In this document: positions 18,707-57,217 of the stretch, in pieces
Position numbering within the stretch: the first letter of the stretch is position 1
Layout: the number at the start of each line of letters is the position of its first letter
NCBI GenBank assembly: GCA_045863235.1
Contig: BTUM01000014.1
Coordinates: 58,878 to 122,877, forward strand
DNA length: 64,000 bases
Origin: Candidatus Xenobia bacterium
GTDB lineage: Bacteria > Vulcanimicrobiota > Xenobia > Xenobiales > QWHO01
Direction: 5' to 3'
Program-made: the position numbers and the translations under genes
Notes under the pieces: generated by a model
The model's database searches: none
Seen by the model: only the letters and a program-made list of their open reading frames with translations
Told to the model about the DNA's origin: nothing

Positions 18707-21091
18707 ATGGACGTGCAGCTCGTCAGACCGCGGCCGATCCCCAGCTCCGTCACCCGTAGCAGCGGGGTCGTCAGCCAGGCCGAACCGGAAAAGCTCGACG
18801 CCGATGATTATCGGCCTCGCCACCTGGGCAAAACACTGGCCCGCGTGGGTGGGTGGACCCTGCCGGTGGCCGGAGGCGTTCTGGCCTATATCGCGGCGAG
18901 CTCTGCCAACCCCTGGGCGGGCGCCGCCGTTGGAGCGCCGGTGGGTCTGGCGGTGGGGCTGGCCATCGGCGGGGCGGCCGACCTGATGAAGTCCTTCGGG
19001 GGCAGCAGCCGGGGCGTGGGGCGAGCCACCGTCCTGGGAACCCTGATCGGAGGAGCCATCACCGGTGGTCTCTCGGCCTGGCTGGTAGGCAGCGGAGTCG
19101 GTTGGGGCATTCCCGTGATGGCCGGGGTGGGCGTGCTGCAGGGCGCCGCATTGGGCGGACTGGTGCATCTGCTCACTCGCCCACGCGAGACCGAGGCCCA
19201 GCGCCTGGTCGAGCGCATCAATGAGGATCCGGCCAAATACAATGCTCCCAAAGCCAAGCCATATCTCGACGCCATCCACGACCTCGAGAAGCGGGGCTGG
19301 GACGTGAGCGGGCACACGCTGCTCGACTATCAGGTCAAGCCTGACCCCAACCTGACCGTCTCGGTCTCGGAGAAGTCCGGCTCCTCCAATGACATCCCCA
19401 TCGAGCAGCTGCCAACCCTGATCAAGGTGCTCAACGGCGAGCAGGCCAGCCTGCCGCACTCGGAGCTCTTCCAGCGCCTGAGCGACCGTCCCCTCATCAG
19501 CCAGGCCCGAGCGGCCAACCTGCCTTATGGCGGTGTTCCTCCCGCCGAGAGCAAAGGCTGGTGGCAGGTGGAGCACACCAAGGCCTACCACGACCTCAAG
19601 GAAGGCAAGGCGCTCCACTACGCTCACCGGGAGATCACCTTCACCTACGATCCGGCCGCCCCGCCCCCGCTGGACGAGTTCATCCAGGACGCCAAGGAGA
19701 CGGCTGAGACGTACGAACGGGCTTTCCGGCCAGCCATCCAGACCTACAGACTGGATGCCTCGCAAGGTCAGGCTCTGTGCAACACCATGGTCGAGCTGGC
19801 CGAAGCGAAGCGCTTTCCCGACCTGGCCAGCGCCGGCCAGGCCATGGCCCGCTGGGCCAACCAGAGCGAAGGGTCCTCCAGCGAGAACACCAAGGCTTTG
19901 CTCTCGCTCCTCTCCCCGGGACGCCCCCCCGAGACCCTGGCTTTGATGGACAGCCTGGTTCCGGACTTCGGTCTGGTCCAGACCGTTCGGGCGGCCGACT
20001 ATCTCAGCACCCGCCTGCCCTTGCTGGGTCCGTCCGAGCAGGCCGGAGCCCGCGACCGCTTTATCCGCCTGGCCGGGTCGCTGGGCGAGGTGGAGCAGGC
20101 GGTGCGCATGGATGGTATTCTGGGCGCGATGAGCGCTCCCGTCTACGACCACTATCTCGGCGTCTGCGAGCAACTGGCCGAGAAAGGAGGCGAGCGCAAG
20201 CCAAAGGACCTGTTGCTCGATTTTGCGATGCTGGGGGCCTACGCCCAGACGCCTCATGACCTGCAGGTCCAGGCCCACGAATTCTCCCGATTGCTCGAGC
20301 CCCTGGCTGCCGCCGGTCAGGCCGACCAGGCGGCCCCCGTGTACGCTTTCCTCAAGAGCCATAAGCTCTCTCCCGATGGCTTCCTGACCACCATGGAGCA
20401 GACAAAGGATGCCCGGGCAGCCTGCCAGCAGCTCTCCGGGTCCCAACCGGGACCGGCCAGCACCCTGGCCATCGACGAGAAAACCTATGAGCCGGTGCTG
20501 GGCTACTCGGCCCGCCAGGCCGTCCAGCATCTCGAGCAAGAGCGAGGCCATCTCGATGCGGCTGGCTTTGAGCGTTACCGCAGGACCTTCGACCGGGTGC
20601 TGAACGCTTCCACCGACCTGGAGGTGGCCAAGCGCGCCAGTGGAGTGCTGCAAAACCTGCCCCCCAACCGGGCCGAGGTCCACCTGGGATTGATGGAGGA
20701 CCTGACCCGCCGTCGGGGTGAGGCCAGTCCTTCCGTGCTGATCGACTACCTGTGCACCGTCACCGGCCGATTGCCGGGCCAGACCCTGCAGGACGCCGCC
20801 CGCGAGTACGGCGACCTGCTCGGAGGGTGCGCGGGCGCAGGTCTGGCCGACGAGGCGGCCCCCACCTTCGCCCTGATCCGCGACGGCATCGCCAACGGCA
20901 AAGCCGGCAAGGACACCGTGCGCGACCTGACCGACCGCTACGTGAAGTCGCTCCTGCTCACCAAAGACGGCGAGAAATCGCGCCACCTCATCTTTACCGG
21001 GGAGGCCCACAGCTCGGTTCAGGAGGACCAGTCCGGCGTGACCGTGGGCGGCGTGCGCATTCGTCGACGCCCCGGCGCGAGGGGAGAATGA
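18707..21091 (+). CDS. Large hypothetical protein: Gly-rich hydrophobic N-region, helical body, C-terminal GGV tail
   Basis: ATG 18707 after GGAGG; ends VQEDQSGVTVGGVRIRRRPGARGE. Confidence 0.8.
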   Translation: MDVQLVRPRPIPSSVTRSSGVVSQAEPEKLDADDYRPRHLGKTLARVGGWTLPVAGGVLAYIAASSANPWAGAAVGAPVGLAVGLAIGGAADLMKSFGGSSRGVGRATVLGTLIGGAITGGLSAWLVGSGVGWGIPVMAGVGVLQGAALGGLVHLLTRPRETEAQRLVERINEDPAKYNAPKAKPYLDAIHDLEKRGWDVSGHTLLDYQVKPDPNLTVSVSEKSGSSNDIPIEQLPTLIKVLNGEQASLPHSELFQRLSDRPLISQARAANLPYGGVPPAESKGWWQVEHTKAYHDLKEGKALHYAHREITFTYDPAAPPPLDEFIQDAKETAETYERAFRPAIQTYRLDASQGQALCNTMVELAEAKRFPDLASAGQAMARWANQSEGSSSENTKALLSLLSPGRPPETLALMDSLVPDFGLVQTVRAADYLSTRLPLLGPSEQAGARDRFIRLAGSLGEVEQAVRMDGILGAMSAPVYDHYLGVCEQLAEKGGERKPKDLLLDFAMLGAYAQTPHDLQVQAHEFSRLLEPLAAAGQADQAAPVYAFLKSHKLSPDGFLTTMEQTKDARAACQQLSGSQPGPASTLAIDEKTYEPVLGYSARQAVQHLEQERGHLDAAGFERYRRTFDRVLNASTDLEVAKRASGVLQNLPPNRAEVHLGLMEDLTRRRGEASPSVLIDYLCTVTGRLPGQTLQDAAREYGDLLGGCAGAGLADEAAPTFALIRDGIANGKAGKDTVRDLTDRYVKSLLLTKDGEKSRHLIFTGEAHSSVQEDQSGVTVGGVRIRRRPGARGE

Positions 21092-22311
21092 TCCACCTCG
21101 AGTGCACCCTGTGCTCGAAACGCTACCAACCCGGCGAAGTGCGCTACGTGTGCCCGGCCTGCGGTCCGGACGGCCTGCTCGACCCGCTCTACGACTATGA
21201 GCGCGCCCGGGGCGACTTCCCGCGCGCCCATGCGGCGGGAATCGCCCGCTACCTGTCCATCCTGCCGATCAAGAACCCGGCTCACCTTCCCCCCCTGCTG
21301 GTGGGGGGAACACCCCTGACGCGGGGCGACAGGCTGGCGCGGGAACTGGGCCTGCAGCACCTGTTCTTGAAGGAGGACAACCGCAGCCTGACCGGATCGT
21401 TCAAGGACCGGGCCAGCGCTGTGGCCGTCGCGGCCGCCCTGGACGAAGGCGAGCGGCTCATCACCGGCGCCTCCACGGGCAACGCCGCCTCTTCGCTGGC
21501 AGGCATGGCGGCGGCGCTGGGCCTGACCACGGTCATCTTCGTTCCAGCTCGAGCGCCCAGAGCCAAGATCACCCAGTTGCTGGTCTACGGGGCCCACGTC
21601 CTGCTCGTGGACGGGAGCTACGACGACGCCTGCGACCTTTCGCTCGAGGCCACCCGGCGCTACGGCTGGTACAACCGCAACACCGGCTACAACCCGGTCT
21701 GCCTGGAGGGCAAGAAGACCGCCGCCCTGGAGATCTGGGAAGACCTTGGCCGCGAGGCCCCCGAGGCGGTCTTCGTTCCGGTAGGTGACGGCTGCATCAT
21801 CGGCGGCATCGGCAAGGGCTTCATGGATCTCCGCCGGATGGGCCTGATCGACCGCCTTCCCCGCCTCTACGGTTGCCAGGCCGAAGGCTCGGCGGTGCTG
21901 AGCAAGTGCCAGGACGGGCGCATCGTGGCCGAGCCCGATGCTTCCACGGTGGCCGACTCGATCTGCGTGGGCTACCCCCGGGCGGCCAGCCAGGCCCTGC
22001 GGGCCGTGCGCGAGAGCCAGGGCAGCTGGCTGGTCGTGACGGACGACGAGATTCTCGAGGCCCAGCAACGGGTGGCCCGGAGCACGGGCGTGTTCGGCGA
22101 GCCCGCCTGCTCGGCCGCCGCCGCCGGGCTCTTCCAGGCCGTGGAGAAGGGCCTGGTGGGCGGCGACGAACGTATCGCCATCATCGTGACCGGCAGCGGG
22201 CTCAAGGACGTGGAAGGAGCGATGAAGGGCCCCTGCGGCCAGGGCATTCCCGTTCCCCGCAACCCGGAGGGACTGGAGGCCGCCTTGCGGCAGATTCCGG
22301 GGCTACTTTAG
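21088..22311 (+). CDS. thrC: Threonine synthase (PLP-dependent)
   Basis: N-terminal CxxC pairs, TGSFKDR, ASTGNAA, EGKKT, VPVGDG, TGSGLKD; ATGA overlap with upstream gene. Confidence 0.9.
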   Translation: MIHLECTLCSKRYQPGEVRYVCPACGPDGLLDPLYDYERARGDFPRAHAAGIARYLSILPIKNPAHLPPLLVGGTPLTRGDRLARELGLQHLFLKEDNRSLTGSFKDRASAVAVAAALDEGERLITGASTGNAASSLAGMAAALGLTTVIFVPARAPRAKITQLLVYGAHVLLVDGSYDDACDLSLEATRRYGWYNRNTGYNPVCLEGKKTAALEIWEDLGREAPEAVFVPVGDGCIIGGIGKGFMDLRRMGLIDRLPRLYGCQAEGSAVLSKCQDGRIVAEPDASTVADSICVGYPRAASQALRAVRESQGSWLVVTDDEILEAQQRVARSTGVFGEPACSAAAAGLFQAVEKGLVGGDERIAIIVTGSGLKDVEGAMKGPCGQGIPVPRNPEGLEAALRQIPGLL

Positions 22312-22383
22312 GCCCGTTGCACTTATGGTGCAGTGCTTTGCGGTCAAGCGGGAACCGCCAGGCGCCGCGCGAATTTTCCCTGG

Positions 22384-22665
22384 ATGCGAGGAGAGTTCCG
22401 GGGCAACGAGTTTCCGATCACAGTCGAGGTGAACCGGCCTCAATTGCTGGGGATTGCAGCCTCGTTTCTGGCCGTGCTGCTCGCCCTGGTCGTCGTGTGG
22501 AAATGGCCGGTTCTGGGGCCGCTGGTGCTGGTCTGGCTTCCCTGCTGCCCGGTACTGGGCGTCTGGTTGGCCGAGCGCTTGACCCGGCGCCAACACGCTA
22601 ACAAGTTCTGCACGCACGCCTCAGCCTCACCGTATCGCTGCGATCGGTGCGGACAGCGCCTCTGA
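22384..22665 (+). CDS. Small membrane protein with C-terminal Cys/His cluster
   Basis: Two hydrophobic segments, then CTH...CDRCG; start uncertain (22333 or 22384). Confidence 0.5.
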   Translation: MRGEFRGNEFPITVEVNRPQLLGIAASFLAVLLALVVVWKWPVLGPLVLVWLPCCPVLGVWLAERLTRRQHANKFCTHASASPYRCDRCGQRL

Positions 22666-22832
22666 TTTGCACAGGTTGGTGACGAAAGTCCGCTCCACCT
22701 GATCCGGCGCCGGGGCCCTCGGGCAACCGACTTGAGGCAGAAGGCCGTTCCCGCCCCACCCATCTGGCTGATGAAAGGAACGGTGTGTCGCGTGAGGAAC
22801 CCTGTCCGACCAATTGTGGGGAGGAACCGCCC

Positions 22833-23645
22833 GTGGCCACGATCACACCCGAGATGCGAGCACTCAAGGACAAACTCAAAGCGACCTGGATGTCCGGGGA
22901 TTTCCATCAGATTGCCCGCACGTACGCTCCCGGCGCAGTGGAGTTCGTGGAGCGGCTCGCGATTCACTCCGGTATGAAGGTGCTCGACGTCGCCTGCGGC
23001 ACGGGCAACCTGAGCCTGCCCGCGGCTCGCGCTGGCGCAGAGGTGACCGGGGTGGACATCGCGGCCAACCTTCTGCAGAAGGCTACCGAACTGGCGGCGC
23101 AGGAGAAGCTCAGCGCGAAGTTCGAGGAGGGGGACGCCGAGCAACTGCCCTATGCCGAAGGCTCGTTTGACGTGGTGATGACGATGTTCGGCGCCATGTT
23201 CGCGCCCCGGGCGCAGCAAACCGGTCTCGAGCTGGTGCGCGTTTGCCGCCCCGGCGGCCGCATCGCGATGGCCAACTGGACGCCCGCCGGATTCATCGGA
23301 CAGATGTTCAAGCTGACCGCCTCGCACGTGGCCCCACCGCCCGGGGTCGACTCGCCGGTGGGCTGGGGCAACCGCGCCCTCGTCCCGGACCGCCTCCCGG
23401 GCGTAGCCGATCTGAAAATGACCGAGCGCCTGATCACGTTCGAGATCCCGCTCTCGCCACCCGAGGTCGTCGAGTTCTTCCGCACCTGGTACGGACCCAC
23501 GATGCGCGCTTTTGCTGCCCTGGATGGCGAGAAACAGGTTGCCCTTCGGCACGATCTCGAGGAGCTTTGGGCGGGACACAACCAGGCCAAGGACGGAACC
23601 ACGCGCGTGGAATCGGAGTATCTGGAGGTCATTGCCACGCGTTGA
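22833..23645 (+). CDS. Class I SAM-dependent methyltransferase
   Basis: VLDVACGTG, GDAEQLP, FDVV, FGAMFAP, RPGGRI; GTG after GAGGA. Confidence 0.92.
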   Translation: MATITPEMRALKDKLKATWMSGDFHQIARTYAPGAVEFVERLAIHSGMKVLDVACGTGNLSLPAARAGAEVTGVDIAANLLQKATELAAQEKLSAKFEEGDAEQLPYAEGSFDVVMTMFGAMFAPRAQQTGLELVRVCRPGGRIAMANWTPAGFIGQMFKLTASHVAPPPGVDSPVGWGNRALVPDRLPGVADLKMTERLITFEIPLSPPEVVEFFRTWYGPTMRAFAALDGEKQVALRHDLEELWAGHNQAKDGTTRVESEYLEVIATR

Positions 23646-23753
23646 GCTGGGATCTTGTCGCTCACCCGGGAGTAATAGCCAGAACGAGACTCTGTCTCAC
23701 GGAGAGGACCCGCAAGCTCGTTCTCGGATGACTTGCCCGCTACGACCGCAGAG

Positions 23754-25076
23754 TCAACCCTCGAACGACAGCAAGAACGGCTGCTCCAGCGCCGAGCACA
23801 CCCAGCGGAGGAAGCGGGCCGCGTTGGCCCCGTCGATCAGCCGGTGATCGTAGGACAGGCTGAGCGGCAACATCAGGCGCGGGACAAACGCGTTGCCGTC
23901 CCAGACCGGCTCCATCCGAGAGCGCGAGACGCCCAGGATGGCCGCCTCGGGCGGGTTGACGATGGGCGAGAAAGCGGTGCCGCCGATGCCGCCCAGGTTG
24001 GTGATGGTGATGCAGGCCCCCTGCAGGTCCTCCATGCTGGTCTTGCGATCGCGCGCCTTCTCGGCCAGGGCCTGCAATTCTGCGGCCAGCTCGAGGATGT
24101 TCTTGCGCTCGACGTTCTTGACCACCGGCACCAGCAGGCCGCTGGGCGTATCCACGGCCACGCCTACATTGAAGAACTTCTTGTAGACGATCTCCTGGCT
24201 GTCCAGGTCGATGCTGGCATTGAAGTCGGGGAAGCGCTTGAGGGCCGAGGCCAGCACCTTGAGCAGGATGGCTGTGACAGTCAGCTTGCCGCCCGCCTTC
24301 TCGGCCCGCGGGGAGAGTGAGACCCGCAGCTTCTCGAGTTCGGTGATGTCGCACTGGTCATACTGGGTGACCTGGGGGATGGTGGTCCAGGCCAGGGTCA
24401 TCTGCTCGGCCGTCTTCTTGCGCACGCCCTTGAGCGGCTCGCGCGAAGTCTCACCCCAGCGGCTGAAGTCGGGCAGGCTGACGCGCGGCAGGGCGGGCGC
24501 GCCGGCGGCCGGCGCGACGGCCAGCGTCCCGGCCAGCATCTGCTTGGCGGTGCGCTTGACATCCTCGGCCGAAATGCGTCCACCCGGGCCGGTGCCCTGC
24601 ACCTGGGCGATGTTGACCCCGATCTCGCGGGCCAGGCGCCGCACCGAGGGGGCCGCCGGGGCTGAGGGACCGGCGGCCACGGGAGCGGTCTTGGAGCTAC
24701 CGTTGGTCTTGACCGCCGGGACGACCGGCGGGGGGGGCGCCTCGCGGGTCGCCACGGCCGGCGGCTCGCTGCGGGGGGCGGGAGCGGGCTCGCTCCGGGG
24801 CGAGGGAGCGGGGGCCTTGCTGCTGGCAGCCGGCGCCGAGCCTCCGGTTACCGTCAGGATGACCTGGCCCACCCGGGCCCGCTCGCCCGCCTTGACCAGC
24901 ACCTTCTCGACAGTACCCGCAACCTCGGCCGGCACCTCCACGGTGGCCTTGTCGGTCTCCAGTTCGACGACGGCGGTTTGAGCCGTGACGGTGTCGCCCG
25001 GTTTGACCAGCACCCGCAGCACGTCGGCGCCGTCGATGTTATCGCCCAGGTTGGGCAGCTTGACTTCGGTGGCCAT
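23754..25076 (-). CDS. aceF: Pyruvate dehydrogenase E2 (dihydrolipoamide acetyltransferase)
   Basis: One lipoyl domain (ETDKA), PSBD (PSVRRLARE, GTGPGGRI), catalytic DHRLIDG. Confidence 0.95.
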   Translation of the reverse strand: MATEVKLPNLGDNIDGADVLRVLVKPGDTVTAQTAVVELETDKATVEVPAEVAGTVEKVLVKAGERARVGQVILTVTGGSAPAASSKAPAPSPRSEPAPAPRSEPPAVATREAPPPPVVPAVKTNGSSKTAPVAAGPSAPAAPSVRRLAREIGVNIAQVQGTGPGGRISAEDVKRTAKQMLAGTLAVAPAAGAPALPRVSLPDFSRWGETSREPLKGVRKKTAEQMTLAWTTIPQVTQYDQCDITELEKLRVSLSPRAEKAGGKLTVTAILLKVLASALKRFPDFNASIDLDSQEIVYKKFFNVGVAVDTPSGLLVPVVKNVERKNILELAAELQALAEKARDRKTSMEDLQGACITITNLGGIGGTAFSPIVNPPEAAILGVSRSRMEPVWDGNAFVPRLMLPLSLSYDHRLIDGANAARFLRWVCSALEQPFLLSFEG

Positions 25077-25126
25077 GTTCTAAACCTTGCTCCGATCACT
25101 GTGTTGAGCGTTACGTGCTGAAGGTT

Positions 25127-25163
25127 TTGCCTACCCTTCGGGGGCGCCCCCACACAAGTCTGT
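25127..25163. repeat. 37-bp dispersed intergenic element, copy 2
   Basis: TTGCCTACCCTTCGGGGGCGCCCCCACACAAGTCTGT, enclosed by inverted repeat GCTGAAGGTTT/AAACCTTCAGC. Confidence 0.8.
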
Positions 25164-25175
25164 AAACCTTCAGCC

Positions 25176-27872
25176 TTAGGAAATGAGCGGATTGCGCTTC
25201 TCAGGAGAGATCTTCAGCTCCTTCATCGCCTTCTCCACTTTGGCCGCTTCGAGCTGACCAGCGTCGGCCAGGCCCTTGAGGGTGGCCAGCACGATGTGGC
25301 GCGCATCCACCTCGAAGAAGTCGCGCAGCTCCTCGCGGGTCTCACTGCGCCCGAAGCCGTCGGTGCCGAGTGCGATCAAGCCGGGGATCCATTTTGCCAG
25401 GGTCATGGGCACAGCCTTGAGATAGTCGGAGGCGGCCACCACCGGACCCTCGGCGCCCTTGAGGGCCTGCACCAGGTAGGGCACGCGAGCCTTCTTGGTG
25501 GGATGCAGGCGGTTGTGGCGCTCGCAGTCCTGGGCCTCGCGATACAGCTCCTTGTAGGAGGTGGCGCTCCAGACATCCGCCGACACGCCGTGCTCGGCCA
25601 ACATCTCCTGGGCTTTGAGAACCTGCAGCATGATCGGTCCGCTGCCGAACAGTTGGGCCTTCAGCTTGCCCTTGTCGCCTTTCTTGAACAGGTAGAGGCC
25701 TTTGAGGATTCCCTGCTCGGACCCGGCCGGCATCGCGGGGTGGACGTGATTCTCGTTGGTCACGGTCAGGTAGTAGAAGATCGGCTCCTGCTCGATGTAC
25801 ATCCGGCGGATACCGTCTTGGATGATGACGGCCAGCTCATAGGCAAAGGCAGGGTCGTAGGCCATCAGATTGGGCACCGGATAGGCCAGCAGGTGGGAGT
25901 TGCCGTCTTGATGCTGCAGGCCCTCACCGTTCAGGGTCGTGCGCCCCGAGGTTGCCCCCAGCAAGAAGCCGCGGCAGCGCATGTCGGCGGCGGCCCAGAT
26001 CAGGTCGCCGATGCGCTGGAACCCGAACATCGAGTAGAAGATGAAGAAGGGAATGGTGGGGATCTGGTGGGTGGCGTAGGCCGTGCCAGCGGCGATGAAG
26101 CTTGACATGGAGCCGGCCTCGGTGATGCCCTCCTCCAGGATCTGCCCGTCGAGAGATTCCTTGTAGTAAAGCAGACTGGCCGCATCCACCGGCTCGTAGA
26201 GCTGACCGACGCTGGAGTAGATGCCTACGGCCCGGAACAGCGATTCCATGCCGAAAGTGCGGGCCTCGTCGGGGACGATGGGCACCAGGTACCTGCCCAC
26301 GCTGGGATCGCGCAACAGCTTGGACAAGAGCCGCACGAAGGCCATGGTGGTGGAGAGCTCGCGGTCGCCCGAGCCGGGGTGGAACTCCTGGAATGTCTCC
26401 GGGTCGGGGGGTTGGATGGCCGGGCAGCGATCCTGTCGGTGCGGCACCGAGCCGCCCAGAGCCTTGCGGCGCTCGAGCATGTACTGCACTTCGGGGCTGT
26501 CCGGGGCCGGCCGATAGAAGGGGGTATGGGAGCACTGCTCGTCGTCGAGCGGAATGCCGAAGCGGCTGCGGAACTCCTTGAGGCTGTCGAGGTCGAGCTT
26601 CTTCTGTTGGTGGGTGATGTTGCGGGCCTCGCCCGAATCGCCCATCCCGTAGCCCTTGATGGTCAGGGCCAGGATCACCGTGGGCGAGCCGCGGTGCTCC
26701 ACGGCCGACTTGAAGGCGGCGTAGACCTTCTCGGGGTCGTGACCGCCCCGGCGCATGCGCTCGAGCTGCTCGTCGGAAAGATGCTCGACCATCTTGAGCA
26801 GGCGCGGATCGGCCCCGAAAAAGTGCTCGCGGATGTAGGCCCCGCCCTCGACCACGTACTTCTGGTATTCGCCGTCGACCACCTGGCCGCAGCGCTCGAC
26901 GAGCACGTGGTCCTTGTCCTTCTCAAAGAGCGGATCCCAGTCGCCGCCCCAGATCACCTTGATCACGTTCCAGCCGGCGCCCTTGAAGGCCGCCTCCAAC
27001 TCGCGGATGATGCTGGAGTTGCCCCGCACCGGGCCGTCCAGCCGCTGCAGGTTGCAGTTGACCACGAAGATCAGGTTGTCGAGCTTCTCGCGCGAGGCCA
27101 GCGTGATGGCCCCCAGGCTTTCGGGCTCATCGGTCTCGCCGTCGCCCAGGAAGGCCCACACCTTCTGGTGGGTGCGCTCTTTCAGGCCCCGGTTGATCAG
27201 ATACCGGTTGAAGCGAGCCTGATAGATGGCCATAATGGGGCCCAGCCCCATGCTGACGGTGGGGAACTCCCAGAAGTTGGGCATGAGCCAGGGGTGAGGA
27301 TAGGAGCTCAGCCCTCCCCCGTCGGCCAGCTCGCGGCGGAAGTTCTCCAGGTCTTTCTCGGTCAGTCGGCCCTCCAGGAAGGCTCGGGCGTAGACGCCCG
27401 GGGAGGAGTGGCCCTGGAAGTAGATGAGATCGCCGTGGCAGGGATGGTCCTTGCCTCGGAAAAAGTGGTTGAAGCCCACTTCCAGCAGGGTTGCGGCCGA
27501 CTGGTAGGTAGCGATGTGGCCGCCGATGCCGGGGGTCACCTTGTTGCCCCTCACCACCATGGCCATGGCGTTCCAGCGGATCAGGCTCTTGATGCGCCGT
27601 TCGATGTCACGGCTGCCCGGATAGGGAGGCTGGAAATGAGCCGGAATGGTGTTGATGTAGGGGGTGTTGGCGGTAAAGGGGACGCGTACGCCCTTCTTCC
27701 GAGCATGCACCTGCAGGCGGCGCAAGATCTCTACCACCCGCTCGGGGCCCTGGCTCTCCAGGATGTAGTCGAGCGACTCGAGCCATTCGCGGTCTTCGAT
27801 CTCGCGAAGCAGGCGGCTTTCTTCGGATTCTCCTTCGGGGGTGCCCGCGCGGGCAGTGGTCGTGTCAATCAT
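25176..27872 (-). CDS. aceE: Pyruvate dehydrogenase E1, homodimeric type
   Basis: GGHIA, SSYPHPWLMP, TVSMGLG, GDGETDE, NLQRLDGPV, GEGLQHQDG. Confidence 0.97.
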   Translation of the reverse strand: MIDTTTARAGTPEGESEESRLLREIEDREWLESLDYILESQGPERVVEILRRLQVHARKKGVRVPFTANTPYINTIPAHFQPPYPGSRDIERRIKSLIRWNAMAMVVRGNKVTPGIGGHIATYQSAATLLEVGFNHFFRGKDHPCHGDLIYFQGHSSPGVYARAFLEGRLTEKDLENFRRELADGGGLSSYPHPWLMPNFWEFPTVSMGLGPIMAIYQARFNRYLINRGLKERTHQKVWAFLGDGETDEPESLGAITLASREKLDNLIFVVNCNLQRLDGPVRGNSSIIRELEAAFKGAGWNVIKVIWGGDWDPLFEKDKDHVLVERCGQVVDGEYQKYVVEGGAYIREHFFGADPRLLKMVEHLSDEQLERMRRGGHDPEKVYAAFKSAVEHRGSPTVILALTIKGYGMGDSGEARNITHQQKKLDLDSLKEFRSRFGIPLDDEQCSHTPFYRPAPDSPEVQYMLERRKALGGSVPHRQDRCPAIQPPDPETFQEFHPGSGDRELSTTMAFVRLLSKLLRDPSVGRYLVPIVPDEARTFGMESLFRAVGIYSSVGQLYEPVDAASLLYYKESLDGQILEEGITEAGSMSSFIAAGTAYATHQIPTIPFFIFYSMFGFQRIGDLIWAAADMRCRGFLLGATSGRTTLNGEGLQHQDGNSHLLAYPVPNLMAYDPAFAYELAVIIQDGIRRMYIEQEPIFYYLTVTNENHVHPAMPAGSEQGILKGLYLFKKGDKGKLKAQLFGSGPIMLQVLKAQEMLAEHGVSADVWSATSYKELYREAQDCERHNRLHPTKKARVPYLVQALKGAEGPVVAASDYLKAVPMTLAKWIPGLIALGTDGFGRSETREELRDFFEVDARHIVLATLKGLADAGQLEAAKVEKAMKELKISPEKRNPLIS

Positions 27873-27916
27873 AGCCCGAGCAGCTTCGCTTCGAGGCGGA
27901 AAGTTCCCCCAACTGG

Positions 27917-30675: not shown

Positions 30676-30685
30676 AGGGCGAACT

Positions 30686-45172: not shown

Positions 45173-45306
45173 ACGACCATCAGTGCTGCGTCCTGCAAGT
45201 TCGTGACCACGAAAAGCACCTGATATCCCCGGCATCCCCCATCTTCCTCTCCTCGCTTGGGAATCTCGTTCAAGGACCGGTCGCCAAGACCGCCGAATTG
45301 CCACAG

Positions 45307-49472: not shown

Positions 49473-49665
49473 TCTCGCGCAGAGACTCAAGTTCTCCCCT
49501 GTCCGACCTGCTCCGAAAGGTCCACGCCAACGGCCGTCTCGTCGGCGTCAGGCCCGGCACCTGGGACAATCCGGCGCTGCTCGCGTCATTAATGGAGCGG
49601 TTGGGCGCCTCGGCGGGCGAATCAGCGCAACGCCCGGGTCGCGTTCCCGGTCGCCCGGCCCTACG

Positions 49666-49948
49666 CTCGAACACTTATTCCAAATTTGAACCGGCGGTTT
49701 ACGAACATCCGTTCCTGGCGAGGCGATCCAATCCCGTGGTTGTGGCGATGCGACCGGCATCCCGGTCGTTCGGCCTCTGAACCGGCGGTTCACGAACGTC
49801 TGTTCCCGGCAAGGCGATCCAATCCCGTGGTTGTGGCGATGCGACCGGCATCCCGGTCGTTCGGCCTCTGAACCGGCGGTTCACGAACGTCTGTTCCCGA
49901 CAAGGCGATCCAATCGCGTGGTTGTGGCGAGGCGACCGCGTCCCGGTC
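49666..49948. repeat. 91-bp tandem repeat, about 3 copies
   Basis: Units start at 49687, 49778 and 49869 (TGAACCGGCGGTT...); contain GAAC-N4-GTTC and the hairpin CGACCGG-CATC-CCGGTCG (degenerate in copy 3). Confidence 0.92.
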
Positions 49949-50010
49949 CCTGGGCCGTCCATACCCGATCGATGCCGTCCACGCCCGAACGAGCTCGAGG
50001 CCCCCCGAGC

Positions 50011-51051
50011 TCAGGCTTGCTCAGGGCTGTAATAGCGTCGGCGGAAGTAGAGCGACAGGTTGACCAGGGCGATCAGCACCGGCACCTCCACCAGAGGACC
50101 GATGACGGCCGCGAAGGCCGCTCCCGAGTGAATCCCAAAGACGGCCACGGCCACGGCGATGGCCAGCTCGAAGTTGTTGCTGGCGGCCGTAAACGCCAGG
50201 GTGGCGCTCCTGGCATAACCCGCCCTGGCATGGTAGCTCAAGAAGAAGCTGACCAGGAACATCACCAGGAAATAGATCAGCAGGGGGATGGCGATACGCA
50301 CCACGTCCATGGGAATGGTGACGATCAGACTCCCCTTGAGGCTGAACATGACCACGATGGTGAACAGCAGGGCCACCAGGGTGATGGGGCTGATGGCCGG
50401 GACGAAGGTCTGGTGATACCACTGCTTGCCCCGGGCCCGAACCAGCAGGTAGCGCGTGGCTGCTCCGGCCAGGAACGGAACGCCCAGGTAGAGGAAGACG
50501 CTCTGCGCGATCTGACCCATGGAGATCGAGACCAGCGCCCCCTGCATGCCCAGCAGCGGGGGCAGCACGGTGATGAAGAACCAGGCGTACAGGCTGAAGA
50601 ACAGCACCTGGAAGATGCTGTTGAAGGCCACCAGCCCGGCGGCATACTCGCAGTCTCCCTCGGCCAGGTCGTTCCAGACGATGACCATGGCGATGCAGCG
50701 GGCCAGCCCGATCATGATCAGGCCCACCATGTACTCGGGATAATCGCGCAGAAAGGTGACGGCCAGGAGGAACATGAGCACGGGGCCGATCACCCAGTTC
50801 TGGAGCAGCGACAGACCCAGGATCTTCCCGTCGCGAAAGACGTCCCCCAGCTCTTCGTAGCGAACCTTGGCCAGGGGCGGGTACATCATCAAGATCAAGC
50901 CGATGGCAATGGGCACGTTGGTGGTGCCGACCTGGAATCGGTCGATGACCTCCCCGATCTGGGGAAAGAAGTAGCCCAGAGCGACTCCCAGCGCCATGGC
51001 CAGGAAGATCCAGAGGGTCAGGAAACGGTCCAGAAACGAGAGCTTCTTCAC
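50011..51051 (-). CDS. acr3: Acr3-family arsenite efflux transporter
   Basis: [45 protein letters not shown] 51051. Confidence 0.95.
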
Positions 51052-51479
51052 AGCTCGGCAGGCCAGTCGGGCAGTTTCTCGAGCAACCGTCGGCAGAGCT
51101 CGGCGAGCTGGTCGCGCACCTCGCGCCAATGCTCCAGGTCGTGGCCGCTGGGGTCAGGCACGCAAACGTGGTAGCGGCGGGTCTGCCCGGGAAAGAGCGG
51201 GCAACTCTGATTGGCGCTGTCGCACACGGTCCACACGGCATCGAAGCGGTCGAGCTCGGGCACTTCCTCGAGGGTCTTGGAACGGTGCGAGCTGAGGTCG
51301 ATGCCTGCTTCGCGCATGACCTCGATGCCTTCGGGCTTGACCCTGGTCTTCTCTGAGCCGGCCGACCAGACTTCCAGCGCCAGGCCCCGCTCAGCCGCCA
51401 GGAAGCGCAACCAGCCCTCGGCCATCTGGCTGCGAGCCGAGTTGTGAGTGCACAGAACCAGGATTCGCTGGGGAGACAT
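51048..51479 (-). CDS. arsC: Thioredoxin-type arsenate reductase (LMW-PTP fold)
   Basis: [16 protein letters not shown]...CP, DP. Confidence 0.92.
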
Positions 51480-51521
51480 CGGAAGAGCTGAACCTCACGG
51501 ACAACCTATCGAGGAGTATCG

Positions 51522-51836
51522 ATGGATTCCTGCTGCAACTCCGCTCCCCCGCCCGCCATGCCCTCCCCACAGGCTCTGAGCGAGCAGGCCCGGCTCTTCA
51601 AAGTACTGGCCGATGCCAGCCGGCTCTGGCTGCTGCATCGGCTTCTCGAGGGCGAGGTGTGCGTCTGCGACCTCCTGAGCGAATTGCCGCTCAGCCAGGC
51701 CACTCTCTCACACCACCTGCGGGTGCTCTCCGAGGCCGACCTGGTCAGCTCGAGCAAGAGAGGACGCTGGAACTTCTACCAGACCACAGCCCGCGGTCGG
51801 GCGCTGGTGGGGAGGGTTCTCAGCTGCTGCCCATGA
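51522..51836 (+). CDS. arsR: ArsR/SmtB-family repressor
   Basis: FKVLADASRL, CVCDL, SQATLSHHLRVL; divergent from arsC-acr3. Confidence 0.92.
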   Translation: MDSCCNSAPPPAMPSPQALSEQARLFKVLADASRLWLLHRLLEGEVCVCDLLSELPLSQATLSHHLRVLSEADLVSSSKRGRWNFYQTTARGRALVGRVLSCCP

Positions 51837-52038
51837 GGGGCACGAACCGAGGCAAGGCCGCCCTGCTCGCCAGGAAGCCCTCCCGCAATGGAGGGCGCCC
51901 TCGCAGATCTCGTCGCGCATCATCGCACGACCTGACTCGCCGCAAGCAGTGCTCACCAGCTCAATCGCCTGGCCATCGACCAGGCTGGTCAGGGTAGCTG
52001 GAGAGGGCTCACGCTCGTCGCGCCAATGGCGGGCCCCA

Positions 52039-53148
52039 TCACGGGGGCACTCTTCGGCGTAGACCTTCCACCTCGACTTCGGTCTCCAAACCGAGGTCGT
52101 GCCGAAGAACCTGCGTGGACAGACGGTCCGGTGCCTGGCGCAGCGCCGCCTGAAGCCACTGCGCCGCCATGTCCGGTCGGCCCGCCCCCGCCCAGGCCAG
52201 CCCGAGCAGGTGCAGGGCATCCGGGGTGGGCTCGCGCTTGACCGCCTGGTGAAGCTCTTGCACCGCCTCGGCGAAGCGCCCGGCGCGGTAGAGAGCTGCC
52301 CCCCGCATGAAGGGCTGCTTCAGCAGCTCAAGCGCCCGCGCATAGTTCCCCTCGCGATAGCAGATCATGCCCTGAAGATAGCGACTCTCCGGGCTGTCCT
52401 CCAGCTCCAGGGCTCGCAGGGCCTGGTCTGCCCAGCCCAGCCGAAACAGGGCCGACCCCCGGTCCAGAGGGGATTCGGGCACATCCAAACCCGGATGCTC
52501 GATTCCAAAGCAGCGTAACAGAGCCGGTCCCATCCAGCACGCCTCCTGGGGAGTGTACCCCCCGTGCACCGAGCTAGCCACCGTGAGAACGTCCGGTTGC
52601 AGCTCTCCCAGCTCGCTCAGGAGCTCTTGCGGCTGTTGCCAGACCTCGCGCTGCTCGTCGATCAGGTAGTCGAGATCGATGTCGAGCAAGAGCGGGTGAG
52701 AGCAGACGGGCAGCGAGGTCGCCCGGCAGAGCGTGAGCCGTCGCCCTCTCAGAACCCCTTCCACGCGGCCTTCAGCCCACTTGAGGCTGCGATACTCCGT
52801 CAGCGTCAGGTCGACCCAAAGTTGCAGCTCGCGACGCGCCCCCTCCAGCGATAGCTCGATCCAGGGAGGGAGCACGCAAACCAGGTGCTCCACGATCCCT
52901 TCGAGCAGGGCGGGGGTCAGGTAGTTGCCACAGTTCAAACCCCGCCCGGGCACGTAGGTGCTGCCCAGGAAGGGCTCCATCTCTGCCTCGCTCCGGGCCC
53001 GCGCAAGCCCCGCCAGGCGTGCGGGGGTGAGGCCTGCGTCGCCCACGTCCAGGTGCGCGTCCACATGCACGCAGGTCGCCCCGCGCACGCCAAGCTCTTT
53101 CCAGAACATATAGGCGCGACAGTGATCCTCGGCCAGCAGGGAGTGCAT
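52039..53148 (-). CDS. UPF0489-like protein with C-terminal TPRs
   Basis: EDH, HVDAHLD, CGNYL, LDIDLDY, GGYTP, then TPR helices. Confidence 0.75.
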   Translation of the reverse strand: MHSLLAEDHCRAYMFWKELGVRGATCVHVDAHLDVGDAGLTPARLAGLARARSEAEMEPFLGSTYVPGRGLNCGNYLTPALLEGIVEHLVCVLPPWIELSLEGARRELQLWVDLTLTEYRSLKWAEGRVEGVLRGRRLTLCRATSLPVCSHPLLLDIDLDYLIDEQREVWQQPQELLSELGELQPDVLTVASSVHGGYTPQEACWMGPALLRCFGIEHPGLDVPESPLDRGSALFRLGWADQALRALELEDSPESRYLQGMICYREGNYARALELLKQPFMRGAALYRAGRFAEAVQELHQAVKREPTPDALHLLGLAWAGAGRPDMAAQWLQAALRQAPDRLSTQVLRHDLGLETEVEVEGLRRRVPP

Positions 53149-53212
53149 CTGAGGAGGGTATCATGCCTGTGGCCCTACTTCCAGGGCAGACCGCTCCAGA
53201 CGGCGAAACACA

Positions 53213-55225
53213 ATGGGCATGGACCTGAGCCGGATGAAACCAGGAGAGAGCAGGCCGCAGCGCCCGCAGCCACCTGTTCCGGACCTCAAAGTCGGACAGC
53301 AGGTCGCCTTGAACCCCGAGCACCGCCAGGCCGACGCCCGGGACGAGGACTTCTTCCACTCGGGCCCCGTCTTCATCGAAGAGCGCTACGCGAGCAGTCC
53401 CAATCAGTTCTACCGCGTGGTCAACTCGCTCGGTCAGGTCCGCTCCTATCTTGGCCACTGGTTGCAGCAGGCCGCCCCCGTGATGGGGGCGATGGTCCCG
53501 GGGCCGACCCTTCCCGTGGTGGGATCTGTAGTGCGGCTGAACCTGGAGGGACTCGAGTTGCCCGGCAGGGTCGAGTACTTCCAGACCGGGCCGGTGGTCG
53601 AGACGATCTCTGGACACGTCGCCAGCCTGCGCAATGCGGCCGGGCAGACCGGGCATTACAACCTCAGTCTTTTGCAGCGGCAGGCCCGAGACAGCGCCAT
53701 GCAGGCGACCGGAACGGCCATTCCCGGAATGGGCCCGCTTCATTTACTGATCGACCAGAGCGAAACGATCGCCGAGCTCAACAGGCTGGTGGGGCAAAGC
53801 GGCGACGAGCAAGCCATGGAGCGAGTTCAAAAGTGCCTGCAGCATGCACCGGAACGGGCGGGCGGAGCCAACCTGGCCCTCAAAGCACTGCAGATTCCGG
53901 GCGGGCTTGCCCTGGTCGAGAAGCTCCTGGAAACGGGCGACGAAAAGGCCCTTCAATCGGCTCATCACGGCCTGGATCTGACCCGTGAGCTGGCCGTCTC
54001 CGCCGAGCAGACCCCCTGGCTCCTGGAGGTCTTGAGCTGGGACAAAGGCTACGCGAGCAGCCGGACCATCCTGCAGAGCTTGCTCTCGGTTCCCGAGCCG
54101 GAACGTCGTCTGAGGTCCGATGTCATCAAAGAGCTCCTGGCTCCCCGGTTGTTTGAGTCCCCGACGAAGACCGCGGAGCGAGCCGTGAGCCAGGCGGGGG
54201 AGGTCTTTTCCCTGGACCTGCCCGAGGAGTCGATCCGCCCCTTTGCCTCCTTCCTGGGTGGATGGTCCGAGACCGGGACACCCCTGGAAGCCTTTCAGAA
54301 CTCAGGACTGTCCGAGCCTGAGCAACGGTCCGCCTGGCAGACCTACCGGGACCTCGGATTCTCCAGCAAATCGGCTCTGGAGCTCGTCGAGTTCGGCCGC
54401 AAGCTCCCCGAGGAGGAGCTCCGCCAGGCTCTGGCCAGTCTGGCCGCCACCGGGAATTACAGCTCGTCCTCCATCCTGATCAAGGATTTCAGGCACCTGG
54501 AGAAGCTCACGCAGAGCCTGCCGGAGCGCCTCAGCCTGATGGGGTGTGTAGCCCGGCTGGCCCGCCTTCGAAGCCACTCCGAGCGCTACGACTTCTTACC
54601 CACCTTGACCATGGACTTTCCCGACCACGAGGCCACAACCCGGGACCTGGAGGCGCTCCCCCTCACCTTCGGAGAAGGACGGGTGGGGCCTGAGCAAGAT
54701 ACCTGGAAGACCGTGGTCACCCATCGCTACAAGGGGGAATCGGTGGCGGCAGCGGGCCAACGCCTGAAAGAGCTGGAAAGGGACATGCCCATTCGCCTGG
54801 ACACCTCGATCCTGGCCACCTCATTCCAGTGGCTTTCGCAGCAACCCCGAGAGCACTACGAAGCTTACAAGCAGGCGCTGCTCACCCGCCTGGAGGCCGA
54901 GTGCCCCCTGGTCCAGGCCCAGTCCGAGCTGGACCTGGCCAGGCAAGCCCCCGAGCCCGTTCCCCAGGCTTTGAAGACTTTGCTGGCTCTGGCTGAGGGC
55001 GAGCTGGCCGAGAAGGGCTTCCGGGAAACCCTGAGCTGGGTTTACTCCCAGCCTCCGCAAGACTATGCCGATCTGGCCGGGCGGCTGATCGCCCAATCCA
55101 AACTGAACGGTTCTCTGGAGAGGGCCATGGAGGTCCTGGAACGGCCTGCCACGGGCGTGCGCGAGGAGGCCGGCGGGGTGACCTTCGGTGGCGTGCGGTT
55201 GAAACGGCGCAACCCCGCGGGCTGA
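53213..55225 (+). CDS. Large helical hypothetical protein with C-terminal GGV tail
   Basis: 670-aa ORF; ends VREEAGGVTFGGVRLKRRNPAG. Confidence 0.8.
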   Translation: MGMDLSRMKPGESRPQRPQPPVPDLKVGQQVALNPEHRQADARDEDFFHSGPVFIEERYASSPNQFYRVVNSLGQVRSYLGHWLQQAAPVMGAMVPGPTLPVVGSVVRLNLEGLELPGRVEYFQTGPVVETISGHVASLRNAAGQTGHYNLSLLQRQARDSAMQATGTAIPGMGPLHLLIDQSETIAELNRLVGQSGDEQAMERVQKCLQHAPERAGGANLALKALQIPGGLALVEKLLETGDEKALQSAHHGLDLTRELAVSAEQTPWLLEVLSWDKGYASSRTILQSLLSVPEPERRLRSDVIKELLAPRLFESPTKTAERAVSQAGEVFSLDLPEESIRPFASFLGGWSETGTPLEAFQNSGLSEPEQRSAWQTYRDLGFSSKSALELVEFGRKLPEEELRQALASLAATGNYSSSSILIKDFRHLEKLTQSLPERLSLMGCVARLARLRSHSERYDFLPTLTMDFPDHEATTRDLEALPLTFGEGRVGPEQDTWKTVVTHRYKGESVAAAGQRLKELERDMPIRLDTSILATSFQWLSQQPREHYEAYKQALLTRLEAECPLVQAQSELDLARQAPEPVPQALKTLLALAEGELAEKGFRETLSWVYSQPPQDYADLAGRLIAQSKLNGSLERAMEVLERPATGVREEAGGVTFGGVRLKRRNPAG

Positions 55226-55228
55226 GCC

Positions 55229-57217
55229 TCAGCGAGAGCCCTGACGCTTGCGCACGGTGACCCCCCCCACCTGCACCCGCTCCACCGTCTCGATGACCCG
55301 ATTGCCGGCCCCCGGGTCGACAGCTGCATCGCCTTCGTAAACCCGGTCGCCTTCCCGGCGAGGGGGCTCGATGACCAGGTGGGTGCCGTCCTCGGCTCCC
55401 ACCACCAGACGTCCGTCCGAGAGAGCCATGCTCCTGATATCCGAGTCCAGATCGACCTGTATCAAAGCTTCCCGCTCGTTCAGGTCAAAGAAGAAGACCT
55501 GCTTGCGGTCGTTGGCCGCGCACAGATAGTAGCGCTCGCCCACCTGCACCGGCTGGGCGTGGGTCCAGCTCTCCTCCCAGTGAGTCCCCCCGCCGAAATC
55601 CTCCCACTCGCACACCAGCGAGAAACTGCGGAACTTGTCCTCACCGGTGGGCAGCTCGACCGTCAGCTCGTGAGCCGAGGTGCGCAAGAGCGCTCCGCCC
55701 GGCCCACCAAAGGGCAGCACGCCCTCCTTCAAGGCCTGGTTCTCATCCACGCTCAGCAGGCTCTTGACCACGGCCGCCTGGCTCTGACGCGAGAGGTCAG
55801 GGCCTGGCAGACGCTCGACCGGGGCGCCCGGGAACTCGAGCGTGTTGCCCGGAACGCCCCCCTGTCCTCGGTAGAAGCGATCCAGCTCGGCCTGGGGGCG
55901 AATGGAAATCACGCTGCGGAAGGCCCCATCCAGGTCGCTCGAGTTGGGGCTCAACAAGTTGTCGCTCGTATGCAACCGGGCTCCCGGACCCAGGCGGGCC
56001 TCCAGAGCGGCCTGATCGCCCACGGGCCGGCCGTTCAAGAAGGCGCCCCGACGCTCCACCACCACCAGGTCGCCGGTAGGCAGCACCCCGGCCACCAGGC
56101 CTTCCTTCTCGGGCACCGAGTGCACCACGGTCTGCCCGTGCTCGTTGCCGAGCAGCTGGCCCAGACGGGTGCCCAGACCATCCTCCTCCAGGTCGAAACG
56201 CACCAGATCGGTGGAGGTGGTCTTGCGGTGCCAGCGGTCGATGGTGCCCAGCAGAGACTTGCCGTCGGGAGTGGCCTGCAGGTCTTCCATGCAGCCGTCC
56301 TTGATGGCGAATCGCTTCTTCTCGCTGCCATCGCTTTCGAGCACGATCAGGTCGGCTCGGGTGAGATCCGAGCGCACGTGCACCGCCAGGTCGCCGTTGG
56401 CCAGGGGGAGCAGGTCCTCGAGATAGCCCTTGAAGGGGAAGCTGGTCTTGCGAGCGGTGCTCACGTCGTAAGTGTGAACGGCGTCCTCGGCGGAATAGAC
56501 CAGCTTGCCGCTGGTGGACAGGGAGGCTTGCATCGTGCGGCTCGGGGTGGCCAGCGTCTGCTTGCCTTCGGGGTCGAAGACCCTTACCACGGAAGCTTGC
56601 CATTCCTCGACCGCGGTGTGCCCCGAGGCCAGCTCGGCCACCCGGCTCACCGGTCCGCCCACCTTCAGGCTGGGGCCGCCCAGCTTCTCGAGGGTCTCAT
56701 CCGAGGAAAGATAGATGCTGCCCGTGTTGGCCATGAGGAGGGTCTGGCCGGGAGCCGTCGGGCGGGTCATCAGGACCTGCCCGGTGGGGTCGAGCTCTTG
56801 CAGCATCCCATCCGTCAACACGAAAACATGGCCATCTTCAGGGCGAACCTGCAGCCCTTTGAGCCCGCTCTGAGGCAGCGGGTTCAGGAAGTTGAGCCGC
56901 CCACCGCTCTGCACCGAGTGCAGGCCATCCTGGTTGGGAAAGATGAAGCTGGTCTTACCCTCCGGGAAACGGCTGAGCACCGGGCGGGCGTAACGGTCGA
57001 TGGGAAACTGGTGCACTTCCTGGAACCCCTCAGCACAAGGAACATAGGTCCTGATCTGCAGAGGGACCAGAGCGGGTGCCGGGGCGCCAGGGCCAGAGGA
57101 GGGTTCCAGGCCCTGCTCGGTCGGTTGAAAGCTATCCTGAACCTGCTTGGGGCGGGCCACGTAGGCAGCCGTCGAAGGCCGCGACAGAGCTTGAAAGGTC
57201 ACCAGAGAAACGTTCAC
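55229..57217 (-). CDS. Beta-propeller-like hypothetical protein with C-terminal GGV tail
   Basis: Blade-like repeats (LDPTGQ, FDPEGK, ESDGSE, TPDGKS); ends VIETVERVQVGGVTVRKRQGSR. Confidence 0.8.
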   Translation of the reverse strand: MNVSLVTFQALSRPSTAAYVARPKQVQDSFQPTEQGLEPSSGPGAPAPALVPLQIRTYVPCAEGFQEVHQFPIDRYARPVLSRFPEGKTSFIFPNQDGLHSVQSGGRLNFLNPLPQSGLKGLQVRPEDGHVFVLTDGMLQELDPTGQVLMTRPTAPGQTLLMANTGSIYLSSDETLEKLGGPSLKVGGPVSRVAELASGHTAVEEWQASVVRVFDPEGKQTLATPSRTMQASLSTSGKLVYSAEDAVHTYDVSTARKTSFPFKGYLEDLLPLANGDLAVHVRSDLTRADLIVLESDGSEKKRFAIKDGCMEDLQATPDGKSLLGTIDRWHRKTTSTDLVRFDLEEDGLGTRLGQLLGNEHGQTVVHSVPEKEGLVAGVLPTGDLVVVERRGAFLNGRPVGDQAALEARLGPGARLHTSDNLLSPNSSDLDGAFRSVISIRPQAELDRFYRGQGGVPGNTLEFPGAPVERLPGPDLSRQSQAAVVKSLLSVDENQALKEGVLPFGGPGGALLRTSAHELTVELPTGEDKFRSFSLVCEWEDFGGGTHWEESWTHAQPVQVGERYYLCAANDRKQVFFFDLNEREALIQVDLDSDIRSMALSDGRLVVGAEDGTHLVIEPPRREGDRVYEGDAAVDPGAGNRVIETVERVQVGGVTVRKRQGSR

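Follow-up and report, generated by a model that had tools for sequence, protein, structure and literature searches.

Short C-terminal tags that are portable between otherwise unrelated proteins have repeatedly led to new sorting enzymes and secretion systems. The late substrates of flagella and the translocators of injectisomes go further in having both a signal at the N-terminus and a recognition region at the C-terminus, and FliS and FlgN are the established readers of the flagellar C-terminal regions. Flagellar cores lacking flagellin have been proposed to serve in export in the case of the Buchnera basal bodies (PMC8109811), Lysobacter enzymogenes OH11 (PMC7688988) and the Cia secretion of Campylobacter (PMC2764114), but, as far as the titles and opening lines of the abstracts of these reports extend, no shared C-terminal tag or conserved N-terminal motif is mentioned for them. 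Here we describe a C-terminal sequence module, hereafter the tail, that occurs on three large proteins encoded in a 64,000-nucleotide stretch of DNA (the window) from a Candidatus Xenobia bacterium (Vulcanimicrobiota; Xenobia; Xenobiales; GenBank assembly GCA_045863235.1, contig BTUM01000014.1, positions 58,878 to 122,877 of the forward strand). The tail is shared by more than 100 otherwise unrelated proteins of this genome, which are almost devoid of ordinary export signals. This suggests an undescribed system for addressing proteins.

Protein 1 (18707..21091, plus strand) has 794 residues counted from the methionine at 18707, the longest open reading frame (ORF) beginning at 18629, and its tail VQEDQSGVTVGGVRIRRR (21017..21070, plus strand) is followed by PGARGE and the stop codon (21071-21091). 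It combines Gly-zipper-like hydrophobic segments near the N-terminus with a helical body. Protein 2 (53213..55225, plus strand; 670 residues, with the public gene call beginning at residue 33) has no assigned fold and ends in VREEAGGVTFGGVRLKRR (55157..55210, plus strand), followed by NPAG and the stop. Protein 3 (55229..57217, minus strand; 662 residues) is beta-propeller-like, with weak propeller matches only in Pfam and NCBIfam, and ends in VIETVERVQVGGVTVRKR (55244..55297, minus strand), followed by QGSR and the stop (55229-55243). All three tails conform to V-x-E-x4-V-x-[VF]-G-G-V-x-[ILV]-[RK][RK]R and lie 4-6 residues ahead of the stop, so that the ORFs and the shared motif were found just as the initial annotation of this DNA had described them. 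That annotation had also raised the possibility that proteins 1 and 2 are distant paralogues, which is not supported: BLASTP aligns them over the 20-residue tail only (E 0.002), with the bodies at E 0.8 or worse. None of the three proteins matches a Pfam or NCBIfam family above threshold, and the ESM Atlas offered no usable relatives of protein 2. The genes for proteins 2 and 3 are convergent, with their stops 3 bp apart, and the same layout is present in a congeneric genome (G001:C153). The protein 2 ortholog of that genome, 58% identical overall, and the protein 3 orthologs at 90% and 56% identity all retain the tail, which is almost unchanged at 56-58% identity of the whole protein. In a 23%-identical homolog of protein 3 from another genus the tail is degenerate, without the GGV and the basic cluster.

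The genome from which the window derives (G000) is a draft of 8.36 Mb in 166 contigs, with 65.8% G+C and a completeness of 97.6%. A strict regular expression for the tail, scanned against its six-frame translation, yielded 10 matches, nine of them at most 8 residues from a stop; the looser core [VILF]GGVx[ILVM][RK]3 yielded 39, all but one at most 24 residues from a stop. A 23-column hidden Markov model (HMM) built from the tails of the genome recovered 110 ORFs at a cut-off of 12 bits, against 2 on reversed sequences. Protein 1 has the highest score in the genome (31.6 bits), and proteins 2 and 3 score 26.7 and 21.1 bits. The matches lie at most 30 residues from the stop in 106 of these 110 ORFs; the share predicted by gene lengths is about 14%. 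At 8 bits and above, 132 of 139 matches are C-terminal, and given that the weak ones (8-12 bits) are nearly all terminal, the real number of carriers in the genome is probably 120-130. Thus the scan of the proteome, by regular expression and HMM, takes the tail far beyond the three genes of the window and finds it almost always at the C-terminus, and its restriction to these genes or to one paralogous family, named at the outset as a possible refutation, is not what is seen, the carriers forming 59 core clusters (see below). The invariant G-G-V is encoded with each of the four glycine codons and with several valine codons, which implies selection on the peptide and argues against a DNA repeat. 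Downstream of the basic cluster there are mostly 0-11 residues (median 4), which are unconserved. In four proteins there is an internal copy of the motif, about 190-220 residues ahead of the end; one of the four has a terminal copy as well, and in the other three the distance to the stop is about 195-220 residues. A double tail of this kind, with an internal copy and a terminal one about 190 residues on, is encoded at G000:C10:924-2963.

In a 40-residue alignment the module often comprises a helical segment and a P/G/S/T/Q-rich linker, followed by [GS]-[VI]-x-E-x4-V-x-[VI]-G-G-V-x-[VIL]-[RK]3. When the tail alignment alone (56 sequences) was given to AlphaFold, it was predicted to form three short strands, the last 20 residues having a predicted local distance difference test (pLDDT) of about 88; the strands of this meander correspond to V-x-E, V-x-V and, after the G-G turn, V-x-V running into the three basic residues. 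The model thus depicts the tail as a self-contained C-terminal module of about 20-25 residues, with a three-strand beta-meander and a basic cluster, in agreement with the beta-hairpin and basic tail of the initial annotation. Equally, a transmembrane helix is absent, the tail consisting of 18-23 residues with charged positions and then 0-11 variable residues. A full-length propeller carrier (14 sequences) was modelled by AlphaFold with a confident core and with disorder over the first 34 residues (pLDDT <50); the tail, a helix plus three strands, is appended to the core without packing on it. An intramolecular pairing of the tail with the N-terminal motif discussed below was also considered and, given the disordered N-terminus and appended tail of this model, rejected. 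As had been suspected, the tail is absent from named families: it is unmatched in Pfam (searched with 40 + 3 whole proteins and 43 tails) and in NCBIfam (three whole proteins and 15 C-terminal 50-mers), and its profile has no match among PDB sequences at E <=10. Foldseek likewise returned nothing from the PDB for the tail model at E <=0.001, the top rows being a beta-meander of GAPDH at E >=0.7. No description of the tail was found in the literature: its peptide strings match no paper, and to judge by titles and abstract openings none of the papers retrieved on secretion systems of Eremiobacterota concerns such a signal. TXSScan has been applied to a related family (Paoli et al. 2022; PMC9259500).

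A set of 6310 crude gene calls based on GC3 (G+C content at third codon positions) takes in 99 of the 106 ORFs with a terminal tail. On clustering their cores (first and last 45 residues trimmed, single linkage, E < 1e-5), these 99 carriers resolve into 59 clusters, of which 49 are singletons and the biggest have 23 members, among them protein 1, and 8 members (PQQ-type propellers). This confirms the suspected portability of the tail over unrelated folds. The carriers range from 159 to 1838 residues and include propellers, giant proteins with MAM domains, helical proteins and small two-helix membrane proteins. Pfam, applied to 40 of them, found no domain in 30, PQQ_2 propellers in four, InhA-like MAM domains in three, PD40 in one and two sub-threshold oddities; domains of an extracytoplasmic type (PQQ/PD40 propellers, InhA-like MAM, F5/8-C) are present in 8 of the 40. 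A Sec-like N-terminus was detected by a crude hydrophobic-window test in only 1 of 99 carriers versus 955 of 5120 other genes, and the N-termini were also inspected by eye; the absence of a Sec signal reported for the window proteins therefore extends to the carriers at large. Hydrophobic segments are present in 38 of the 99, and in 24 of the 29 carriers of at most 320 residues, where typically two of them lie close together in the middle of the protein. In the class of 160-320 residues (e.g. G000:C111:1439-2263, C2:61290-62108 and C25:27149-27709) an N-terminal coiled or helical part precedes two closely spaced Gly/Ala-rich hydrophobic segments, a bilobed layout that resembles secreted membrane-inserting proteins. 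The carrier genes are spread over 64 contigs, with seven close pairs only. Small-protein families recurring near 3 of 5-6 members were examined as linked partners and discarded as DUF433-like/antitoxin-like or unassigned, and nothing machine-like was seen around the tail genes of G030, G034 and G040, genomes with few tails and poor crude gene calls.

The phylogenetic distribution of the tail was surveyed with a 28-column profile (E <=0.01) in 41 related genomes. The five genomes of the genus of the window have 59-110 matches each among the matches listed; the profile has no match in 30 of the 35 remaining genomes of the order and 1-2 matches in each of the five others, and one genome from another family of the class has eight. 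On reading, the outlying matches are genuine C-terminal variants, e.g. of the form V-x-I-G-G-V-R-[LIV]-P-R-R. In a sample of the phylum, 17 of 301 genomes contain a match, with large numbers in one genus only among the matches listed; eight of the 301 are flagged as unpublished and, having no tail match, enter the denominator only. The tail is accordingly lineage-restricted, abundant in one genus and sparse elsewhere in the phylum, in keeping with the lineage specificity supposed in the initial annotation. The phylum is apparently Eremiobacterota, the NCBI label of a close homolog being Candidatus Eremiobacterota. A 40-column profile recovered 31 sequences at E <=0.001 from 1.84 billion representative proteins and is too short to reach beyond them. 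In 25 of these 31 proteins the match ends at most 13 residues from the C-terminus, and one (P0017) has two tandem tails at its end; another (P0020) was rejected as a carrier, being a false positive from a repeat protein.

The tail is accompanied by a second conserved element at the other end of the protein. Many carriers start with M-[QNHI]-[IV]-x-[PST], followed by a P/S/T/A/R-rich stretch of about 35 residues and often then by D-x-V-x-L-S or D-R-F-x-P (the N-motif). Protein 3, which begins VNVSLVTFQALSRPST...QDSFQPTE, is of this type, and the P/S/T-rich N-terminus of protein 1 (18707..18820, plus strand; M-D-V-Q-L-V-R-P-R-P...), which falls below the threshold of the matrix, is a possible weak example of the same genome-wide motif. 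With a threshold of 9 bits, a matrix of the N-motif recognizes 123 genes, of which 38 have the tail (Fisher odds ratio for co-occurrence about 45); the corresponding number of genes for an internal control window is 14. This first matrix had been seeded on tail proteins; a second one, retrained on the 85 tail-less matches only, still recognizes 24 of the 99 tail proteins (0 of 99 in the internal window) versus 8 of the 6126 remaining genes. Near threshold the matrix is unspecific, and a lipid desaturase gene in the window (62790-63767, minus strand), at 9.5 bits, is probably a false positive.

The tail-less proteins with the N-motif include a family of 27 subtilases with a Fervidolysin prodomain, a Peptidase_S8 domain and an InhA-like MAM domain. 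One of them is encoded in the window (59772-61844, plus strand); it begins MQINPQ..., has neither a Sec-like signal nor the tail, and would belong to the putative Sec-independent exported set. Subtilases elsewhere rely on a signal peptide. Homologs of the window subtilase are present in 41 of 41 related genomes, and in 30 loci read by eye, without scoring, representatives of all ten genera begin with an N-motif of this type and lack a hydrophobic signal peptide, with several shorter homologs also lacking the D-x-V-x-L element. To judge from these sequences, the N-motif is order-wide and independent of the tail. Since it is also found on tail-less subtilases across the order, the N-motif is a better candidate than the tail for the primary export signal, which would leave the tail an accessory. 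The N-motif resembles the known rules for type III signals, namely an aliphatic residue at position 3, proline or serine nearby, few acidic residues and a Ser/Pro-rich stretch.

Taken together, the above observations lead us to favor, tentatively, a two-step mechanism in which the N-motif would serve for export and the tail would be an additional tag, at the C-terminus, for sorting or docking. The tail module is appended to at least 106 unrelated proteins of the genome, and these would form part of a set of about 200 proteins that appear to bear the non-hydrophobic N-motif instead of a Sec signal. In the first step the N-motif might direct the carriers to a flagellin-less flagellar-type type III apparatus, which is kept in every genome of the order. 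In the second step the tail might be read as a further address, before or during export, by a cytoplasmic adaptor or by the export machinery itself, and would thereby distinguish membrane-inserting, propeller and giant MAM-domain cargo from enzymes that are released freely, for instance the subtilases. The motif of the tail, its placement, portability and lineage distribution, its association with the N-motif, and the occurrence of the export core without flagellin are observed; export of the carriers, the identity of the exporting machine and the reading of the tail before export are inferred.

The candidate apparatus is a flagellar-type type III export cluster at G000:C27:54000-79400, with one full-length FlhA. 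The cluster encodes FlgB, FlgC, FliF, FliG, FliH, FliI, FliJ, a lytic transglycosylase, FliK, a short FlgE/F/G-like protein, FliM, FliN, FliP, FliQ, FlhB and FlhA; FliR is not among the called genes, its place falling in a gap of the gene calls. Downstream of it lie three identical genes for helical proteins of 81 residues and a gene for a 533-residue protein that shares their C-terminal sequence; neither kind of protein has a Pfam match, and PDB searches with them gave chance-level results only. Flagellin_N has no match in the 97.6%-complete genome. Across the order FlhA is present in 41 of 41 genomes and flagellin in 8 of 41, and those eight have a second full-length FlhA; the conserved apparatus of the order is therefore flagellin-less. 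Searches of the same genome for other machines returned no match for TssC/VipB (PF05943), the VirB4 ATPase (PF03135) or family-1 encapsulin (PF04454), and it has three secretins. In addition to the full-length FlhA, five genes encode only its cytoplasmic C-terminal domain (G000:C80:28015-29436, C3:26976-28256, C1:377634-378896, C106:14866-16854 and C107:13661-15910), two of them fused to FliG_N, and their neighbors are unrelated housekeeping genes. The number of soluble copies of this kind is at least one throughout the genomes of the order and reaches about 18 in large ones. The paralogue on C3 (26976-28256) has true orthologs in the tail-rich genus only, a correlation among close kin. A complex prediction for residues 90-427 of this paralogue with the tail alignment, run without controls, scored 0.01 and counts neither way.

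Several observations weigh against the two-step mechanism. FliS (PF02561) and FlgN (PF05130), the expected readers of a C-terminal region, have no match in the genome at E <=0.1. None of the 41 genomes lacks the export core, and the tail is abundant in one genus only; with the core occurring without the tail in most of the order, the export machine does not need the tail. FlhA is moreover found in 284 of the 301 genomes of the phylum and, being near-universal, cannot discriminate between hypotheses by its distribution. The tail genes adjoin neither the export genes nor the paralogues of the FlhA cytoplasmic domain, so there is no positional link to a reader, and an all-against-all BLAST of the neighbors of the 99 tail genes (four genes on either side) uncovered no convincing linked family. 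The pLDDT of the tail is just 51-55 in the full-length carrier model, and the 38 of 99 carriers with hydrophobic segments could be inner-membrane proteins with cytoplasmic tails. Finally, the attribution of the N-motif to type III export rests on the absence of alternatives and on general rules for such signals. In a more specific scenario, the flagellin-less flagellar apparatus might mediate general export throughout the order by reading the N-motif, and the tail might have arisen later in one genus and spread to more than 100 cargos, its reader being an adaptor such as a soluble FlhA cytoplasmic domain peculiar to that genus. If so, this would be a type III secretome with two addresses and no described counterpart. 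We regard this elaborated version as rather unlikely.

Nearly as likely as the two-step mechanism, and like it only a tentative proposition, is the alternative that the tail acts after export, as a targeting or retention element. Here a cationic amphipathic beta-hairpin would bind anionic surfaces, either on the producer itself (its outer surface or lipopolysaccharide) or on a target cell (its envelope or membrane), with no reader needed, and tail-less enzymes would diffuse away. The hydrophobic residues alternate on two or three short strands with three basic residues at the end, a design reminiscent of cationic beta-hairpin antimicrobial peptides, and the 0-11 variable residues after the motif imply that a free C-terminus is not recognized. 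The failure to find a reader or a linked gene near the tail genes, the hydrophobic segments in most of the small carriers (24 of the 29), which would suit membrane-acting proteins, and the lack of the tail on subtilases of the same N-motif set are all compatible with surface binding. Charge alone, however, leaves unexplained the invariant G-G-V and the conserved acidic residue eight positions upstream, as well as the near-constant terminal placement of the module.

A clearly less probable proposal is that the tail serves in assembly, through addition of its strands to the sheet of a partner or as a foldon-like homo-oligomer in a surface layer, filament or pore. The predicted autonomous three-strand meander with its high local confidence, the lack of packing on the core in the full-length model and the existence of tandem or double tails (the G000:C10 protein and P0017) would be in keeping with such oligomerization; nevertheless, self-repulsion would be expected in a homo-oligomer with strongly basic ends, and one ordered assembly is unlikely to take up over 100 different cargos, the longest of 1838 residues. 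Less probable still is a role in processing or turnover, with the basic cluster as a polybasic cleavage site for the 27 subtilases or the tail as a degron that a cytoplasmic protease would act on. Subtilases and kexins classically cleave at dibasic and tribasic sites, and here an [RK][RK][RK] end followed by a short dispensable extension coexists with one family of 27 S8 subtilases in the genome; yet a cut there would remove merely 0-11 residues, with the conserved part lying upstream of the putative site, the subtilases are expanded order-wide and the tail is not, and known degrons are usually found at the extreme terminus. The view that the tail is no functional tag at all, being a remnant of single-family ancestry or an accidentally translated DNA repeat, can practically be dismissed. 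The 23-member largest cluster speaks for some spread by gene duplication, but there are 59 unrelated clusters with 49 singletons, synonymous codons vary at the invariant positions, the 106 of 110 matches lie in frame at the ends of long ORFs versus two matches on reversed sequences, and the tail is better conserved than the bodies in orthologs and alone aligns between proteins 1 and 2; chance, a DNA repeat and a single paralogous family are excluded as its origin.

The surroundings of the three genes in the window are of an ordinary housekeeping type, including a Clp/McsB operon, RNase Y, pyruvate dehydrogenase and two-component systems. At 977-6651 (minus strand) a ClpC-like AAA+ gene is followed by genes for a P450, a McsB-type ATP:guanido phosphotransferase and a McsA-like protein with a UVR motif; such arginine-kinase/Clp modules are best known from Firmicutes. 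At 9706-11439 (plus strand) a STAND-type NTPase (AAA_16/nSTAND1) is fused to an adenylate/guanylate cyclase domain.

What sets the tail apart is the lack of Sec signals on its carriers, its form as a 20-residue beta-hairpin in place of a helix or domain, and its co-occurrence with the N-motif, in a nearly uncultured phylum. It would function like other portable C-terminal tags, yet it fails the defining features of the C-terminal domain (CTD) of the type IX secretion system (T9SS) and of the sortase-type, type IV secretion system (T4SS) and encapsulin signals. The T9SS CTD (TIGR04183/PF18962) is likewise a portable C-terminal label on about 1-2% of the proteome, spread over unrelated folds and expanded by lineage. 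However, T9SS cargo requires a Sec signal and a beta-sandwich CTD of 70-100 residues, whereas the tail has 20-25 residues, its carriers are Sec-like in 1 of 99 cases, and CTD models of the PF18962/TIGR04183 type do not match it (Pfam on 43 proteins and 43 tails; NCBIfam on three proteins and 15 C-terminal 50-mers). The T4SS signals of the VirB/D4 and Dot/Icm types resemble the tail in being Sec-independent and positively charged at the C-terminus, but they are not conserved beta-hairpins, and no VirB4-family ATPase was found in the genome. The analogies with T9SS and T4SS drawn in the initial annotation therefore break down on defining features, namely the missing Sec signal, CTD match and VirB4. 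LPXTG, PEP-CTERM and GlyGly-CTERM signals similarly combine a short motif near the C-terminus with a basic cluster and occur on many proteins per genome, but a transmembrane helix separates their motif from the basic end, and they are accompanied by an N-terminal Sec signal; the tail has neither, and none of the NCBIfam sorting-domain models matches it in the three whole proteins and 15 C-terminal 50-mers searched.

The cargo peptides of encapsulins are also short and C-terminal, with small or hydrophobic residues followed by basic ones, and are attached by a flexible linker to unrelated cargo. Their motif spacing is different from that of the tail, and the genome has no detectable family-1 shell gene (PF04454), other encapsulin families not having been searched; moreover, the tail is found on more than 100 cargos of up to 1838 residues, many with membrane segments. 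Type I secretion relies on an uncleaved C-terminal signal and a dedicated ABC/MFP/TolC system, often together with RTX repeats; no RTX family turned up in the Pfam matches of 43 carriers, transporters not having been searched.

The nearest parallel is with the flagellar late substrates and injectisome translocators, in which one protein has two signals, one at a disordered and non-hydrophobic N-terminus and another at the C-terminus; the N-motif and the tail of the carriers may correspond to these. The genome has a flagellar-type export core, and some carriers have paired hydrophobic segments like those of translocators. Unlike the tail, the C-terminal regions of those substrates are amphipathic helices, present on one or a few substrates and either bound by chaperones of the FliS/FlgN/FliT type or acting as a translocator-specific signal. 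The tail is a predicted beta-hairpin shared by more than 100 proteins in a genome in which FliS and FlgN were not found. If it merely binds surfaces after export, it would represent a compact natural targeting peptide. If instead a flagellar-derived system reads it, this would be a new way for type III machines to select and classify their cargo, and a simple rule at the sequence level would then identify what these possibly predatory bacteria with large genomes export, namely proteases, membrane-acting proteins and giant adhesin-like proteins.

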